64,000 nt of DNA. Origin: a virus. The notes beneath the pieces were generated by a model that saw only the letters and a list, made by a program, of their open reading frames with translations, was not told the DNA's origin and ran no database searches. The stretch spans positions 19,607 to 83,606 of the IMG/VR virus record IMGVR_UViG_3300043539_002606. One strand, given 5' to 3'. Position numbers and translations under genes: made by a program. Below are positions 9,643 to 51,113 of the stretch, piece by piece. The stretch's first letter is position 1, and each line of letters begins with the position of its first letter.

Positions 9643-9672
9643 CTCTGATCTTTATTTATATAAAATCACTTT

Positions 9673-12067: not shown

Positions 12068-12092
12068 AGTTCTTTATTGTTTTCTTTGTTAT

Positions 12093-13868
12093 TTATAGTG
12101 TGCTTGTTCCAATTACTTCTTCAAACGATACACCTGTGCGAACAGCTACAAAGTTTAGAGTGATATAGTTAATGCTCTTAGATGGCTTGATAAAGATCGT
12201 ACCAACAAATCGATTGTTATCAACAACTTCAGATGTGTTATTGCTTTCATCGCAAATTACTCTAAAGTCAATGATGCCTCTACGACCTTGAACTTCACGG
12301 AGATATGGCTCAACTGCATTTCTGAATGCTGCACGAGTAAATTCGTCGTTAAGTTCGAATAGCAAGAATTTACTTGCTGTAGCAATTGCCTTTTCAATTG
12401 TAATAAAGAGGCGGCGAACGTTGATGCGGTCAAACGCACCAGGTTTAGCTTGCGCTGTTTTATCACCAAAGAGAACAATGCCATTACCTGGGCTGCTAAC
12501 GATTGGATTAATACGTGCAGTGTATAGATCATCGCGATCAGTCTGTTTTGGATTATAAGCAAGTTTTGTTACACCCAATAGATTGCCTCTGTTGAATCCA
12601 GCAGGACTAAACCATGGATCAGCGAGACGATCTGTTTTGGCGCAAAGACCAGCCATATGTCCGCAAGCCGGAATCCAAACAAAAGCATCACGATAACGGT
12701 TATAGACATAAACTGGAGTGCTATCAAATACAGTATAGCTATTTGCTCCACTAAGAGCACTGAATTTAGCTTTAACTGTTTCAAGCCTATCAGTAGATGA
12801 AGTAGCTATTGAAAGTGGTGCACTAATAAAAGCTAAACAATCGCGACGAGATGATGCAAGTTCAATAAGCTTATTATCTACTTGCAATTGAGTTGCTGTT
12901 ACTGCAAAATTATGAGCAAACACAAAGTTAATATCAATTGATTCAGCATTTTGAAACTCGTCAATGGATGCTAATATAGTAGATTCAGAAAATGTAGTAG
13001 AATCAACTCCACCTTCAAAAAGATATGGACCGTCAAATAATTCAATAGTGAAATAATCAACATATGATGCTGATGTTAAACCATCTTTATCAGTTGTGAA
13101 GTTTACACCCCAAACATAACTTGAATTATTATTAAGAACATCAGCCCAATAGATTGATTGACCTGAAGTATTTTTTGCTGCAGTAAAGTAAGAAAGACCT
13201 TGATATACCTCAAGAACTTCTCCAGCAGTACCAGTAATAAGACCCAATCTATCATAAACAATAATTGTTAATTCATCATTTACTACAGTCTTATTAAGTA
13301 TACCTGCTTGATCGTCGCTCCAACCAGTAGAACTTGGATTATATGTTTTTGCTGATTTAATAGCCGCTGGTATTTCGATATCAGTTGTATTTGAATCAAT
13401 AACAAATACACTAATAGAATTTCCAAGTGCACCAGGGTAACGGGAAACAAATCTTATACGAGAGGCTTGAAGCGCACTTTGACTATTTGAAAGGTCACCA
13501 ATATTATTAATATTAAGAGCTGGAGAAATGCCTGTGCCATTAGCAGTTTCACCGTAGCCATAACCAGCGGTAAAATCATTTGAACTATGAGCATTTGAGC
13601 TGCCATCGGCTGTACGAACAACACGCAATGCGTTGCTATATTTCAAATAGCTTGCTGCTGTCATGAAACTAGTTTCATAATCTCCTGCACTTGTTGGTGC
13701 TCCGAATGTTCGTGCTAGTTCAGTTTCAGAACCGATGTTAACTGGTGTGTTAACTGGTCCCCATCTAAAAAACCCTGCAAAACCACCAACGCTTGTTGCT
13801 AGTGCGGGTATGATATTTGTCAAATCTGTTTCTTTGACTTCTACTCCAGGTGATATTAAAAATCCCAT
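12093..13868 (-). CDS. gp18: Contractile tail sheath protein
   Basis: ISPGVEVKETDLT, WFSPAGFNRG, GDKTAQAKPGAFDRINVRRLF. Confidence 0.97.
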   Translation of the reverse strand: MGFLISPGVEVKETDLTNIIPALATSVGGFAGFFRWGPVNTPVNIGSETELARTFGAPTSAGDYETSFMTAASYLKYSNALRVVRTADGSSNAHSSNDFTAGYGYGETANGTGISPALNINNIGDLSNSQSALQASRIRFVSRYPGALGNSISVFVIDSNTTDIEIPAAIKSAKTYNPSSTGWSDDQAGILNKTVVNDELTIIVYDRLGLITGTAGEVLEVYQGLSYFTAAKNTSGQSIYWADVLNNNSSYVWGVNFTTDKDGLTSASYVDYFTIELFDGPYLFEGGVDSTTFSESTILASIDEFQNAESIDINFVFAHNFAVTATQLQVDNKLIELASSRRDCLAFISAPLSIATSSTDRLETVKAKFSALSGANSYTVFDSTPVYVYNRYRDAFVWIPACGHMAGLCAKTDRLADPWFSPAGFNRGNLLGVTKLAYNPKQTDRDDLYTARINPIVSSPGNGIVLFGDKTAQAKPGAFDRINVRRLFITIEKAIATASKFLLFELNDEFTRAAFRNAVEPYLREVQGRRGIIDFRVICDESNNTSEVVDNNRFVGTIFIKPSKSINYITLNFVAVRTGVSFEEVIGTSTL

Positions 13869-13951
13869 ATTTGTTTCCTTTCAGTTGTTGTTAATAAGTT
13901 TATTGCATACTAAGTTTATGACTCACAAACTTATTTATAAATTATTCACTT

Positions 13952-16838: not shown

Positions 16839-17759
16839 TTAACTAGGCTCCCCAAATGGATTATCTTCAGAGAAATCAATAAAGTCCTCTTCAATTGCTG
16901 TTTGTTTAAATTTGCTATTTTGACTCATGCGATCATTGTTGAATAGCAAATCGTTATTATCACCAATGACATAGCTATCTATAACTGTTGCAACTGCACC
17001 TGATTTTGTGCCAGTAAAGACAGTGCCAACACCAAGTTGGGTAGGCGCTCCTGTTGTAAAGGTTGGCACACCTACAATTATTTGATTTTTATTTTCGTCA
17101 AGTTTATATTTGTAGAATTTAACAAGACCGCTTGTTCCAGAGAATGTAAATGTTAGGCTTTCACCAGCAAGAAACTCACCAGTTGCCGTTGTAGAATTAT
17201 ATTCAAAAATATTACTATCGCTGTTATTATATTCAATGCTATCAATCTCGTGCACACCTGTGTTTATATTCTGACTTTCATATTCAAAAAGTTCACATGT
17301 GAGTGTCCAGATCGGTGCATCCTTTAATTGTAAAAAGGGCTTTTCATTTTCCACATATTTGATTTCAAATAATTTTTTAATAGGACTAAGCGGAAAGAAT
17401 ATAAGATCACCTTCTGTTGGTCGATTATTATTAACACCAAACCCATAACGACCAACTCCTTGAATCCAACGACGTTTGCTAACAACAAGATTCATCTGAT
17501 CTCGTATCTCGAGGCCAAATTTACCAAGCAGCTTGCCATCACCCTCATAGCCATCAATACTTTCAACATACATTTCAATCTTAAAACTATGGATGAAATT
17601 GCTTAGCAGATCTTCGTTTAGGATATTATCTTTTGTTACAATATGACGAGGTATATAATAGACGTCGGTGCCATAGATCTTAATGGCCTCAATGATTAGA
17701 TTTTCATAGAGTTCCTTTTCTGATCTCTGACCATTCTGGAAATATTGATTAACTGGCAT
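16839..17759 (-). CDS. gp14: Neck protein
   Basis: EAIKIYGTDVYYIPR, KFGLEIRD, RPTEGDLIFFP, DFSEDNPFGE. Confidence 0.94.
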   Translation of the reverse strand: MPVNQYFQNGQRSEKELYENLIIEAIKIYGTDVYYIPRHIVTKDNILNEDLLSNFIHSFKIEMYVESIDGYEGDGKLLGKFGLEIRDQMNLVVSKRRWIQGVGRYGFGVNNNRPTEGDLIFFPLSPIKKLFEIKYVENEKPFLQLKDAPIWTLTCELFEYESQNINTGVHEIDSIEYNNSDSNIFEYNSTTATGEFLAGESLTFTFSGTSGLVKFYKYKLDENKNQIIVGVPTFTTGAPTQLGVGTVFTGTKSGAVATVIDSYVIGDNNDLLFNNDRMSQNSKFKQTAIEEDFIDFSEDNPFGEPS

Positions 17760-17762
17760 AAT

Positions 17763-18512
17763 TTATCCAACAAAAAAGTCAACAGGATTGCTATAGAAAA
17801 GATCAAATCTTTCTTTAAGTTCTTTGAGATCTGTGACAGCATCATCATAGATCTGACGACCACTAATTGTCACACCGCCTGGTAATTGCATGCCTTCGAA
17901 CTTGCTAAGATTCTGACCCCATTGTTTTTTAATCATTAGTGTCAGCAGCTCTTTAAGTGCCATGTCATTATAAACATCTGGATAGCCATTAGGATCGACG
18001 CTCGTATAGCATTCAATAATAATAAAGTCACCTACTTTTGTTTTATCTCGCAATAGACCATGAAATTGAAGAGTGTCCATGTGACGAGCATAGCTTAATT
18101 GACCAGTATGACCTGTGATAATATTCTGCACAAGACTAATATATTGACTTGTCATCTCATAGTTAATAATGCCACCTGGGTTTCTCAGACCATATACGTC
18201 ATTAAGAAACATTTGATATTTAGCGCTAAACATACTCGCGCTGCTCGTATCATTAAAACTAAGTATTCGAGTGACACTTAAGATATTCTCTGGCAAATTG
18301 CTAATCTTATTGTCATCGAGATCAGATTGTGTAATCTCATGCTTAAGAAGTGTGCGTACAACTGCGTCGCTGTGATATTCTTGCCAATATTGAATTGCTT
18401 CATCAATGCGATCCTCTAATTGATCGTCATCAATATTAATCTCCATAACTGGTGCACCAAGTGCGCGCAAACAATAGTCGGCCAGTTCTTGTCTTGTACT
18501 AGGTCTTGCCAT
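17763..18512 (-). CDS. gp13: Neck protein
   Basis: YCLRALGAPVMEINIDDDQLEDRIDEA, KKQWGQNLSKFEGMQLPGGVT. Confidence 0.95.
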   Translation of the reverse strand: MARPSTRQELADYCLRALGAPVMEINIDDDQLEDRIDEAIQYWQEYHSDAVVRTLLKHEITQSDLDDNKISNLPENILSVTRILSFNDTSSASMFSAKYQMFLNDVYGLRNPGGIINYEMTSQYISLVQNIITGHTGQLSYARHMDTLQFHGLLRDKTKVGDFIIIECYTSVDPNGYPDVYNDMALKELLTLMIKKQWGQNLSKFEGMQLPGGVTISGRQIYDDAVTDLKELKERFDLFYSNPVDFFVG

Positions 18513-18541
18513 AAGACTATTTATATGTTAAATAAGATCAT

Positions 18542-19138
18542 TCAATTCTTTTCTTTTTTACATATGTAGGGCAAGCTAATGACTACGCTTAGCATTGCAG
18601 CACTATATAAAAAATTCTTGAATCGTTCTAAAGATTGTGTAATCTTTACAGCATTTGAATTTACATAAGACGTCTTGATATTTAGAATCTCATTTATGGC
18701 AGAGACTGTTGGATCAGTTAAGCTATACATTTCTTGCACAACATTTGATTTGTTAACGCTAATATCTTCAGTCAACACTTTATCAATAAAAAGATCTATC
18801 TTAACGTCATTGTCTTTTATAAGCTGCATATATGCAAGTTCATCTGGCGTAGTAGTTTTAAAATATTCATTAAGCAGTTTATTTTTTTCTTCGCGCTGAC
18901 TTAACAAGATCTTTTTTAAATCTTCTTTGCTTTGCATGCCATATGAAAATTTAATAATGTTATCAACTATGGTTAATCCATACCAGTCGAATACCAGGCC
19001 GATATTTTCAACTGTTGCTTTTTGCTGTGTCAAATTATCATTTATGGTTTTCTCAACATGATTCACTGTCTTAACACCTTGAAAGACAAATCCAAGAATG
19101 ATTATTGTTAAGCAAATAATAAAGGTTCTTGGTTTCAT
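18542..19138 (-). CDS. Two-TM membrane protein with a chemoreceptor-type four-helix-bundle sensory domain and no cytoplasmic signalling domain
   Basis: TM1 (FIICLTIIILGFVFQGV), about 150 aa helical loop with DWYGLTIVD..K...G, Y..T.TPDE and EMYSLTDP..SAINEIL resembling 4HB_MCP ligand-binding domains, TM2 (FLYSAAMLSVVISLPYIC), then a 5-aa tail. Confidence 0.68.
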   Translation of the reverse strand: MKPRTFIICLTIIILGFVFQGVKTVNHVEKTINDNLTQQKATVENIGLVFDWYGLTIVDNIIKFSYGMQSKEDLKKILLSQREEKNKLLNEYFKTTTPDELAYMQLIKDNDVKIDLFIDKVLTEDISVNKSNVVQEMYSLTDPTVSAINEILNIKTSYVNSNAVKITQSLERFKNFLYSAAMLSVVISLPYICKKEKN

Positions 19139-19452
19139 CTTTTGATAAATTTTTCAGGATTGTTTTGAAATTTTTTTCCAAGCTTAACGAGGCCGTTAAT
19201 AATCTCTGGACTCACTACGCCGATGATACCATATGCAATAGCTTTATACAAACTAGAAATATCTGTTTGTTCAAGAATAAACCAGGCAATACCAGATGCG
19301 ATTGCTGCACTAAATATTTTCTTAAGCTGTTCAAGTAAACTAAATTTAGTATCACTTGACATTAAGCGCGCTAGCATTGCAGCGGCACCAATAAGAGGAA
19401 TAATCCATCCACCTTCGATAAATTGTTTTGCTAGAGCTCTAAAGTCTTCCAT
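19135..19452 (-). CDS. Putative holin (LydA-like, 3 TM)
   Basis: 105 aa with three hydrophobic segments, G..G...PEII motif and basic C-terminus; own TATAAATA late promoter. Confidence 0.7.
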   Translation of the reverse strand: MEDFRALAKQFIEGGWIIPLIGAAAMLARLMSSDTKFSLLEQLKKIFSAAIASGIAWFILEQTDISSLYKAIAYGIIGVVSPEIINGLVKLGKKFQNNPEKFIKR

Positions 19453-19486
19453 AAATACTATTTATAAAAATAACAATATTAAGATT

Positions 19487-19654
19487 ATGAAACGTATATC
19501 TATCAATGACAATTACAAACAGCTATTCTGGAAACTTGGTTGCGGAACAGTTGAATATATCGAAATCTATAATGAAGATGGAGATAAACTATATTTTAGA
19601 GCCGGCTCAGGTCGGTTTCATATGTTAAGGGGGGAGCTAGCTGATTATCAATAA
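19487..19654 (+). CDS. Small hypothetical protein (55 aa), opposite strand to its neighbours
   Basis: MKRISINDNYKQLFWKLGCG...RGELADYQ fills the intergenic gap and is followed by a terminator-like hairpin. Confidence 0.55.
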   Translation: MKRISINDNYKQLFWKLGCGTVEYIEIYNEDGDKLYFRAGSGRFHMLRGELADYQ

Positions 19655-26049: not shown

Positions 26050-26107
26050 GTTTCTATTTATAAGATATAAACTTCAACAGAACGTGAGCTGTTTATATCA
26101 ACATTAA

Positions 26108-28295: not shown

Positions 28296-28316
28296 AATTC
28301 TATTTATATGATAATG

Positions 28317-40809: not shown

Positions 40810-40836
40810 GGTTATTTGTATTTATATTGATTTGTT

Positions 40837-44500: not shown

Positions 44501-44533
44501 CAAATCTATTTATACACAATCTTGGGAACTATT

Positions 44534-46913: not shown

Positions 46914-47882
46914 TTAGCTAACAACGCGAACCATAAATTTTACACCGGATAATTGGCGATTGCTTTGCAAAGCAATTTTTCCACCTGCCGTATTACCGTC
47001 AATCGTTTGAAACGTACTTTCACCTGGAGTAGATTTAGTTACAATACCAACGTGACTCCAACTAAAGACTACAATATCTCCAGGTTTTACATCGCGTGGA
47101 TTATATTCAAGCGCGACACGACTGCTTACATTACTCTGTCTTGCCCAATTATCAAATCCAAATGCATCTGCATTTTTTGGTCGAGAATTTTCATCAAATA
47201 AACCAGATTGTTGTATGCACCAACAAACAAATGCTGCACACCACGGCTCGCGGCTTGCAGCACCTGTTGGATAATTCGTTGCTTTAAAATATTCAGAGAT
47301 TGCTCCTGGATTTGTTGCATATGTCACGTTTCTGCTAAGTTGACTAAAAGCAGGTTGTATGATACGATTAGCAATTGTTTGATTATAAGAGTTTCCAGGC
47401 AATGTTTGATTAAACTCTTTTAATAGACCGCTGCCGTGAGCTGCAGTAAATGGTATATAACCTCCGCCAGCACTAACTCCTATACTATTTGATCCAACGT
47501 TTATTGGACCAGCATAGCTATTTGCTGGTGGCATAGAATTGCTATAGCCAGTTTGGTTAAAAATTGGGTTATATGCAGCATTTTTAGTTTGATTCCATTC
47601 GCCTTCATAGACTCCGATTACAACAGCATCTTGCATATCAGCGCTATCTCTAAAAAAACCAAATGCGCATCTGCCTATTAAACTAGAAATACTACTAGAA
47701 TTTGTTAGCAATACTGTAACAGGCAACAATAGAGTTGCCCATGGCAAATCAGACGTAAGAATCTCGGCTGATCCATTTGAATCTACTTCAAAACTGTGTA
47801 AACCAAACATACGCACTCGCACGCGTTTATTTGTCGTATCACAATCTTCAATTATACCTGTAAACCAATTATCTATTTTCAT
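46914..47882 (-). CDS. gp5 N-terminal OB-fold fused to a CHAP amidase/peptidase domain
   Basis: WFTGIIED...RVRVRMFGLH...LPWA...FGFFRD; then PWCAAFVCW...PGDIVVF..SHVGIV...TIDGNT. Confidence 0.85.
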   Translation of the reverse strand: MKIDNWFTGIIEDCDTTNKRVRVRMFGLHSFEVDSNGSAEILTSDLPWATLLLPVTVLLTNSSSISSLIGRCAFGFFRDSADMQDAVVIGVYEGEWNQTKNAAYNPIFNQTGYSNSMPPANSYAGPINVGSNSIGVSAGGGYIPFTAAHGSGLLKEFNQTLPGNSYNQTIANRIIQPAFSQLSRNVTYATNPGAISEYFKATNYPTGAASREPWCAAFVCWCIQQSGLFDENSRPKNADAFGFDNWARQSNVSSRVALEYNPRDVKPGDIVVFSWSHVGIVTKSTPGESTFQTIDGNTAGGKIALQSNRQLSGVKFMVRVVS

Positions 47883-47883
47883 T

Positions 47884-49335
47884 TTATACCTTTGGTAATT
47901 GCACAAGTTTTAAGCGGTTAATATATCGACCATCTACAAAACTATGAACACTAGCAATAATTATATAGAGACTATTTCTAGTAGAGCTCTCAGAATCTTC
48001 ATCAACTATAAGATCTATTATTTTTCCGGGATTTAGATTAATATCACCATAAACAACAATCTCACTCTGTTCGTTTGCTATTTTTGCTGTAAAAAATCGA
48101 ACTGCACGACTATGCCAATTTTTAATTTGAACAGTATCATTTAGTCCATTTGGTCCATCATATAGCGGCAAAGGTCTATTCGAAATTATTGCGGGCTGAG
48201 ATATCGATATATCATCAGCACTTAATTTCAAAGTCTTAATATAATCTTCTCTTAATTTTTTATTTCGATCAAAGCTTTCTGAATATTCAACCTCATTTGG
48301 TGTTTGTCCTAGTGTATCTTTAAGAGCAGGAACATATGGATCAATTTTTTTATCGTCATAGTCAAAATAACCAGTATAGTTAATTGTCTTAACTATCGTA
48401 TCATATTCACCCTGTAAAAACTTATTTAATTCGTTTTTTGTTACACCTGCGGTGAATTCCAATATTCTTTGTTTTTCAGATTCATAGCGTTTATCATCAT
48501 TCGTATAACTGCCATTATCGTTATTATACTTTTTTACAAACTTTCTATAAACACTATTATGTTTTTTGTCAATAAGCCAATTCCAACTTCTAGCCATTAT
48601 CTTTCTAATGGGTGAATCAGGCAATTTAGCTAAATCACTAAATATTCCATATATGAAAAATGGAGATTTATCTCCATCAAAGGACTTTGTTCGTAACCAT
48701 TCTATGGCTTGAAGTGGAGTGCAATATGGTATAACACCTCTTATTTTACTATCGCAGTTTGTTCTTGAATGTGTAGTAGAATAATCAAATTCTTTATCGT
48801 TTAATTTCAGATATTTTTTAAAAATCAAATCGACGTGTTCAATGGTATTTTTATTTCTTTTAGATACATTATGTGGTTGACCAACCGCAAATGATATTTG
48901 TTGTAAACGACTAAGCACAGCAAAGTCATCAACAGCAGTAATAACAAAAACTCCAGTATACACACCCTCGCTATCTAATTCAAAATCTCCATATTCACGA
49001 ACACTTAGTTGAAATTTTATAGTTTGATTTCCTTTAGAATCAATAAATTTTACACTTATCTCCAGAACCTCATGTCCTTGAAAAACATCTGGATTGCTTT
49101 TGAAAATTTTATTGTCTGCATTTGCAGTATCGCTGACTGTTAATTTAGCTACCATTACTGGAGAAAATAATTCTTCAGTAAATGATATATCCGTAATTAG
49201 TTCAGTAATGTTTAAGTCATTAGCAAGATCATCACGTCTTATAACTACGTTTTGTAGTTCATATGTGCCTGGTACAAGAGGTTTACCTTCGGCGTTAAGA
49301 ACCTTTGGACTATTTTTGGTATATTTCTCAGCCAT
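47884..49335 (-). CDS. Putative baseplate hub protein (gp27-like position)
   Basis: Lies between gp53 and gp5; C-terminal VYGDINLNPGKIIDL...YIIIASVHSF as in hub proteins. Confidence 0.6.
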   Translation of the reverse strand: MAEKYTKNSPKVLNAEGKPLVPGTYELQNVVIRRDDLANDLNITELITDISFTEELFSPVMVAKLTVSDTANADNKIFKSNPDVFQGHEVLEISVKFIDSKGNQTIKFQLSVREYGDFELDSEGVYTGVFVITAVDDFAVLSRLQQISFAVGQPHNVSKRNKNTIEHVDLIFKKYLKLNDKEFDYSTTHSRTNCDSKIRGVIPYCTPLQAIEWLRTKSFDGDKSPFFIYGIFSDLAKLPDSPIRKIMARSWNWLIDKKHNSVYRKFVKKYNNDNGSYTNDDKRYESEKQRILEFTAGVTKNELNKFLQGEYDTIVKTINYTGYFDYDDKKIDPYVPALKDTLGQTPNEVEYSESFDRNKKLREDYIKTLKLSADDISISQPAIISNRPLPLYDGPNGLNDTVQIKNWHSRAVRFFTAKIANEQSEIVVYGDINLNPGKIIDLIVDEDSESSTRNSLYIIIASVHSFVDGRYINRLKLVQLPKV

Positions 49336-51101: not shown

Positions 51102-51113
51102 TATTTATAGATA
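51102..51113. promoter_or_regulatory. Overlapping divergent late promoters for gp48 (-) and gp4 (+)
   Basis: TATAAATA on the minus strand at 51102-51109 and TATAGATA on the plus strand at 51106-51113. Confidence 0.7.

Follow-up and report, generated by a model that had tools for sequence, protein, structure and literature searches.

Beyond lysis inhibition of the T4 type, the timing of phage lysis by outside cues is poorly understood. In T4 the antiholin RI is dispensable for lysis itself. It senses from the periplasm, is functional even when anchored in the membrane and acts on the periplasmic domain of the holin (PMC11413866). In P1 the antiholin LydB has no transmembrane (TM) segment and is dispensable for lysis itself, and lydAB is expressed from a late promoter, within a structural/late operon and unlinked to the endolysin gene (PMC9025707). 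A similar layout, with a putative late promoter, is found in the 64,000-nucleotide (nt) stretch of viral DNA analyzed in this work (IMG/VR record IMGVR_UViG_3300043539_002606, positions 19,607 to 83,606; hereafter the window), where a holin-like gene directly precedes a gene for a protein of 198 amino acids (aa), here called X. The window was taken from a viral contig of 83.6 kb (completeness about 46%), which belongs to an uncultured T4-like myovirus whose nearest cultured relatives are cyanomyophages and the Methylophilales phage Melnitz, with only 37-40% identity. The evidence presented below supports the assignment of X to the 4HB_MCP_1 superfamily, as a stand-alone protein built of TM1, a four-helix bundle (4HB) and TM2, and X is probably a new holin accessory of the known antiholin class.

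The protein X consists of a first TM segment, about 150 helical residues, a second TM segment and a short basic tail; by hydropathy the hydrophobic segments span residues 6-22 and 176-192, and the C-terminus reads KKEKN. Because basic residues flank both segments (MKPR and KKEKN), the positive-inside rule would place both termini in the cytoplasm and the approximately 150 residues between them in the periplasm. A preliminary description, made from the sequence alone, had already reported this plan together with the ATGA overlap of the two genes, the KKEKN tail and the layout on the minus strand, all of which are present. It had also compared three loop motifs with the 4HB sensory domains of methyl-accepting chemotaxis proteins. 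The motifs are there (DWYGLTIVD at residues 51-59, YFKTTTPDE at 92-100 and EMYSLTDP....INEIL at 136-152), although two of the spacings had been given one residue off, and the likeness itself is supported by profile matches of family members and by models. Six of 26 members of the X family match PF12729 (4HB_MCP_1), and two of them, P0023 and P0026, exceed its gathering score of 27, scoring 30.3 and 30.1 bits in matches that span positions 12-174 of the 181-position profile. The alignment of the clade of X was matched by hhalign to these PF12729-matching members at 97.6% (E 3.6e-12, 190 columns). For X itself, direct scans gave no Pfam match at E ≤ 1 and no meaningful PHROG match, PF12729 found nothing in the six-frame translation of the contig, and among PDB sequences the profile searches matched nothing but designed helical repeats, at E ~1e-3 or weaker.

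An AlphaFold2 (AF2) model of X, built from the family alignment, has a pLDDT of 84.9 and contains helices at residues 3-65, 71-93, 98-123 and 130-192. Helix 1 is continuous with TM1 and helix 4 with TM2, so that the model is a TM-anchored four-helix bundle. The best PDB matches of the model in Foldseek were the ligand-binding domain of the Vibrio chemoreceptor Vc1313, sensor-TM fragments of NarQ, and MCP2201, with TM-scores of up to 0.75 by target. VIA-align matched it to the sensor domains of MCP2201, Vc1313, PcaY, HK9 and NarQ at Z 14-15 with a root-mean-square deviation of 1.8-2.2 Å over 124-152 residues (Z 14.9 for 9kup, 14.3 for 5xub and 14.0 for 8bsa), and the ESM Atlas placed a virus-only 4HB_MCP_1 cluster among the nearest neighbours. 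Like the bacterial 4HB_MCP_1 sensors (Tar/Tsr, Vc1313, MCP2201, PcaY, NarX/NarQ), X thus shows four antiparallel helices of which the first and the last run on into the membrane. It differs from them in lacking HAMP, kinase or methyl-accepting output, in falling below Pfam detection, in its short helices 2 and 3 (23-26 residues) and in belonging to a virus-only family tied to a holin. No HAMP, MCPsignal or kinase domain follows TM2, after which X ends within six residues; the lack of a HAMP or signalling domain had been noted from the start.

Homologues of X were collected by exhaustive phmmer searches as 29 cluster representatives, all with the TM-helical-TM plan (alignment A2). Within the bundle the residues F50, D51, Y53, G54, D59, K63, Y92, E100, Y138, P143 and N149 are conserved family-wide, and within the TM segments L10, I13, G21, F176 and L183. 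The conserved polar residues D51, Y53, D59, K63, E100 and N149 are compatible with a candidate binding site but could equally be structural. In other branches of the family the C-terminal tail of X is longer and rich in K, R and P. The holin-like protein follows the same trend: in the related loci of group D both proteins carry long K/R/P-rich C-terminal tails, while in the clade of the window both tails are short (alignments A2 and A6). These parallel tail lengths suggest a shared function at the cytoplasmic face.

The preliminary description went too far in regarding X as a captured chemoreceptor. No match was found by tblastn of X and three of its distant homologues against the GenBank phages (50,697 records), PHROGs contains no member of the family, the X alignment detected no relative when run against prokaryotic genomes, one per species, and longer, fused forms were looked for without success, a negative that carries little weight. 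To judge from these comparisons the X family is old, diverse and virus-only, and only remotely related to cellular 4HB domains; because of this remoteness, and since neither a fused form nor a close cellular relative was found, the word captured is too strong. A recent capture from a host chemoreceptor is not supported, given the depth and virus-only distribution of the family and its merely remote similarity to cellular domains, and no donor chemoreceptor turned up. Being absent from PHROGs and from the GenBank phage records, the family is effectively unstudied.

The gene upstream of X encodes a small protein with hydrophobic segments at residues ~16-31, 46-60 and 68-89 (hydropathy) and a basic C-terminal tail, for which an N-out/C-in topology is predicted. 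It matches Pfam PF16083 (Phage_holin_3_3, LydA, holin superfamily III) at E 9.9e-6 with 26.0 bits, below the cut-off of 28.4, as well as PHROG holin families (phrog_6384 'holin', E 1.4e-5). Seven of its 11 homologues match PF16083, none scoring better, and tblastn against the GenBank phages gave no match. The general traits of holins are thus found (small size, three hydrophobic segments, a basic tail and homologues next to endolysins), with no endolysin gene adjacent in the window itself. The designation of the neighbour as a three-TM holin-like gene, proposed earlier, can therefore be kept in the sense of a putative remote relative of the LydA family, with a sub-threshold family match and a supportive context. 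The gene has a single start codon, which leaves no room for an internal antiholin of the lambda kind. Both open reading frames (ORFs) are real genes: homologues occur in more than 120 viral contigs, and the dN/dS ratios against the 82%-identical copy at locus L001 are low, 0.11 for X and 0.05 for the holin. On these values both genes are under purifying selection.

A further line of evidence is the inheritance of the pair. Alignment A2 of the whole family being too divergent for scanning loci, IMG/VR was scanned with sub-family alignments; they gave about 130 loci with X, to which one metagenome contig (L003) is added. A holin homologue lies directly upstream of X in 128 of the 131 loci, the other three having no upstream DNA, and the 4-nt ATGA overlap is kept in most of them. 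Pairwise identities of the holins and of the X proteins are correlated with r = 0.95 over 101 distinct pairs, a value reached in none of 999 permutations; the two genes therefore travel as one unit, within which X evolves faster (mean identity 0.42, against 0.63 for the holin). The pair is thus conserved across related phages, as far as all 128 assessable loci go, and stands in the lysis cassettes of many. The dependence is one-sided. Relatives of the holin occur in at least 476 viral contigs, and among the 74 best matches in which the presence of X could be assessed, X lies directly behind the holin in 42 and is absent from 32. As the holin often occurs without X and X never without the holin (128/128), X needs the holin and counts as an accessory to it; such asymmetry is expected of an accessory regulator and not of an essential pore subunit.

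Some loci without X (L184:2818-2973; also L161 and L186-L189) have a 51-aa ORF whose start overlaps the holin stop by 4 nt. Its product has two hydrophobic segments joined by a short loop and resembles an X without the bundle, no sequence similarity having been established.

A CHAP or GH19 endolysin gene lies beside the pair in 89 loci: 61 of group B2, 27 of group D and the metagenome contig. On the latter the order is CHAP endolysin, holin, X and a 62-aa TM protein. In group B2 (e.g. L023) a gene for an outer-membrane-protein-like (OMP-like) product, the holin gene, X and a CHAP endolysin gene follow one another with overlaps, and CHAP lies next to the pair in 61 of the 65 loci that could be assessed. 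Group D (e.g. L104) has the order holin-like gene, X, a gene for an eight-stranded OmpX-like barrel, a GH19 endolysin gene and a Phage_holin_4_1 holin gene, GH19 being within 3 kb in 27 of 36 loci. Since two unrelated endolysin families adjoin the pair in unrelated phage backbones, a lysis role is the most economical reading. Separation of the pair from any endolysin gene is seen not only in the window but also in L001, L005 and group C, and a holin gene apart from the endolysin gene is common in T4-like genomes. The only CHAP protein of the contig (330 aa, 46914-47906, minus strand) was ruled out as an endolysin: an N-terminal OB domain of Gp5 (24.5 bits, slightly below the cut-off) is joined in it to CHAP (41.8 bits), and it is a gp5-like baseplate hub with CHAP in place of the T4 lysozyme.

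The claim that a late promoter drives the pair is plausible. The TATAAATA box is found at 19459-19466, 6 nt before the holin ATG, and its distribution is strand-biased: the window contains ten copies on the minus (coding) strand (51102-51109, 44507-44514, 40819-40826, 28301-28308, 26055-26062, 19459-19466, 18518-18525, 13932-13939, 12090-12097 and 9653-9660) and one on the plus strand, a raw count only modestly above the approximately six per strand expected from composition. A listed ORF begins 3-22 nt downstream of seven of the minus-strand copies, and for five of these the distance is 3-6 nt; most copies stand 3-10 nt ahead of a gene start. Such closeness to the ORF starts leaves no room for a Shine-Dalgarno sequence, and it suggests late mRNAs that would be leaderless or nearly so, or a second use of TATAAATA as a translation signal. 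As another box precedes gp13, the holin gene and X form a two-gene unit (Table 1).

Table 1 Features of the holin-X locus in window coordinates
Feature	Position	Strand	Basis and remarks
TATAAATA box, T4-type late-promoter consensus (putative)	19459-19466	-	Sequence; 6 nt before holin ATG
Three-TM holin-like protein, 105 aa	19135-19452	-	Pfam, PHROG, hydropathy, endolysin neighbours in related loci
ATGA stop/start overlap (holin TGA / X ATG)	19135-19138	-	Sequence; couples holin and X
X, two-TM protein of 198 aa, whole gene with stop	18542-19138	-	ORF, family of 29 representatives, AF2, dN/dS
TM1 of X, residues ~5-22, running on into bundle helix 1	19073-19126	-	Hydropathy and AF2 helix 3-65
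Predicted periplasmic four-helix-bundle sensor-type domain of X, residues ~23-175	18614-19072	-	AF2, Foldseek, VIA, Pfam on family members, conservation
TM2 of X, residues ~176-192, running on from bundle helix 4	18563-18613	-	Hydropathy and AF2 helix 130-192
Short basic, presumably cytoplasmic tail CKKEKN of X, with stop codon	18542-18562	-	Sequence
Second TATAAATA box	18518-18525	-	5 nt before gp13 ATG; downstream boundary of holin-X unit
gp13 neck protein	17763-18512		PHROG and Pfam; just downstream of X
gp14 neck protein	16839-17759		PHROG and Pfam; just downstream of X

Compared with the known holin partners, the pair resembles P1 lydAB in having a LydA-family holin gene whose stop codon shares a 4-nt overlap with the start of the accessory gene directly behind it. 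It departs from it in that the holin of the window is only a sub-threshold relative of LydA and that X has two TM segments and a periplasmic 4HB domain; X was rejected as a homologue of LydB, which has no TM segment, at an hhalign probability of 0.3%. With the T/RI system of T4 it shares the T4-like background and a periplasm-exposed accessory protein through which a cue from outside the cytoplasm could reach the holin. Where X has two TM segments and a 4HB domain, RI has a signal peptide that is cleaved off and a globular domain of small size, and RI binds the large periplasmic domain of T, which the holin of the window does not have. On these traits X is not an antiholin of the RI type; no Phage_holin_T homologue was found in the 83.6-kb contig, which is about 46% complete. 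The mode proposed here for X, inhibition of the holin by helix-helix contacts in the membrane, recalls S107/S105 of lambda, but S107 is made from the holin gene itself by use of an alternative start, whereas X is encoded by a separate, unrelated gene and has a large periplasmic domain. None of LydB, RI and S107 joins, as X does, a sensor-type domain in the periplasm to membrane anchors on either side of it. No relevant literature was found that links a holin or an antiholin with 4HB or chemoreceptor domains.

The reading of X that we favour, and hold with middling confidence, is that of a candidate accessory regulator of the holin, antiholin-like in its action. The mechanism that we infer would comprise a membrane topology, a contact with the holin, a direction of the effect on lysis timing and, possibly, sensing. 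X would be an inner-membrane protein whose two TM helices carry the periplasmic bundle, with the short basic tail after the second, and it would be made together with the LydA-type three-TM holin from the same late message by translational coupling. The TM1/TM2 pair would contact holin helices in the membrane and restrain or tune the formation of holes. Since the holin has almost no periplasmic part, any coupling must pass through membrane helices or cytoplasmic tails, and a periplasmic contact of the RI type is impossible. The state of the bundle (a ligand, an envelope condition or a superinfection cue) might then set the strength of the restraint by shifting TM2 relative to TM1, as is established for chemoreceptors and NarQ, and so alter the sequestration of holin helices; sensory output would be their direct release or sequestration, with no kinase cascade. 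That the bundle is a genuine ligand- or cue-gated input to the predicted lysis clock, as the preliminary description suggested, we consider rather unlikely. If it were true, X would be the first ligand-gated antiholin, and one widespread in uncultured aquatic phages, in T4-like myoviruses as well as in phages with OmpX-like lysis-cassette genes: a receptor-type sensor domain wired directly to a holin without an intervening signalling cascade. An X that gates the holin would represent a minimal sensor-to-membrane-pore switch and would give direct access to how the environment sets burst timing in abundant uncultured phages.

Several observations weigh against an antiholin with a sensor-type bundle. 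X itself reaches no Pfam or PHROG model, the Foldseek E-value is only ~0.03, and helical bundles easily reach high structural scores, a caveat given by the VIA tool itself; for this reason the claim on the fold is based on profiles, architecture and structure combined. The assignment of the holin is sub-threshold, and its hhalign match to P1 LydA is weak (11%, E 0.0027). The holin exposes almost nothing to the periplasm, and the pair of the window has no endolysin gene beside it. The cassettes of group D contain two holin-type genes, the second of which, adjoining the GH19 endolysin gene, encodes a canonical holin of the Phage_holin_4_1 family (29.4 bits; L104:5797-6222, L099:1151-1567), so that the LydA-like protein may not be the main holin there. 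The contact of X with the holin through the TM segments is one that we purely infer; a prediction of a 1:1 complex from our own alignments scored 0.00, which is neither support nor evidence against binding.

The strict co-inheritance and the translational coupling would also suit a stoichiometric complex, in which X acts as a positive co-holin, that is, a second structural subunit that helps the LydA-like protein to form or nucleate holes, the bundle being only a dimerisation or spacer module and no sensor. Two-component holins occur in other phages, and residues are conserved in both TM segments of X. We nevertheless regard this as rather unlikely: in the 32 of 74 loci without X the holin homologues are 64-76% identical to that of the window, and for this reason the holin does not need X, while the conserved polar residues of the bundle argue for more than a spacer.

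In a quite improbable alternative, X would anchor in the inner membrane a non-canonical system that spans the envelope or disrupts the outer membrane and that would, working with neighbouring phage OMPs, replace the spanins. X occupies the slot after the holin gene where spanin genes often lie, no classical spanin pair was seen beside holin and X in most loci, and OMP-like genes are frequent neighbours. In 33 of 36 group D loci the gene directly after X (L104:4705-5145, L099:2672-3139, L111:5136-5573, L131:4665-5120) encodes a secreted OmpX-like protein of 146-155 aa ending in NKDF, modelled by AF2 with eight strands (pLDDT 87) and matched best by Foldseek to OmpX, OprF-N, OmpA-TM and Ail (E 1.5e-5); to judge from the model, this barrel in a lysis cassette may be an outer-membrane-disruption factor. 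A different gene, represented by L023:2924-3607 (a 227-aa, signal-peptide-bearing, beta-rich protein ending in F, with no Pfam match), lies just upstream of the holin gene in 64 of 73 group B2 loci and may encode a second, unrelated phage OMP of the same cassette position class. X follows the holin, however, and not the OMPs: no OMP-like gene adjoins the pair in the window, in L001 or in groups B1 and C, and L111 has a separate i-spanin-like gene (TM plus coiled coil) besides X. The resemblance to the i-spanin Rz and the u-spanin T1 gp11 lies in the position just after the holin gene and in periplasmic helices tethered to the inner membrane. X is predicted to have both its ends in the inner membrane, and there is no free periplasmic C-terminus as in i-spanins; this C-terminal TM segment led us to reject the i-spanin, and no embedded or adjacent lipoprotein ORF was seen. 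As a u-spanin X was rejected on its poor lipobox, in which Cys9, with only eight residues before it, is replaced by G or S in homologues. The preliminary description had itself allowed that X might prove to be a spanin, and by these features it is not one.

A very improbable proposal, close to the alternative of the preliminary description that X jams host receptors, is that X acts on the host or on other phages, as a decoy that poisons dimers of 4HB chemoreceptors or sensor kinases (mixed dimers between them and a free-standing sensor domain are conceivable in principle) or as one of the membrane exclusion proteins against superinfection that are common in T4-like phages; this fits poorly with the obligate holin linkage (128/128 assessable loci), the start/stop overlap and the putative late expression, no close cellular relatives were found, and mixed dimers are unlikely because X is only remotely similar to cellular 4HB domains.

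Two smaller genes of these loci are conserved. A 54-aa ORF (MKRISIN...) at 19490-19654 on the plus strand, between the genes on the tail-fibre side and the holin gene, has no Pfam match and is conserved in L001 (2813-3040, on the minus strand in that locus). A single-TM protein of 60-62 aa with the pattern MD.I.Q......PWF.V.T...A.AS..AA.TPTPKEG... is encoded near the holin gene, with or without X (L003:8678-8866, L023:6797-6979, L142:2956-3138), and is possibly another lysis accessory.

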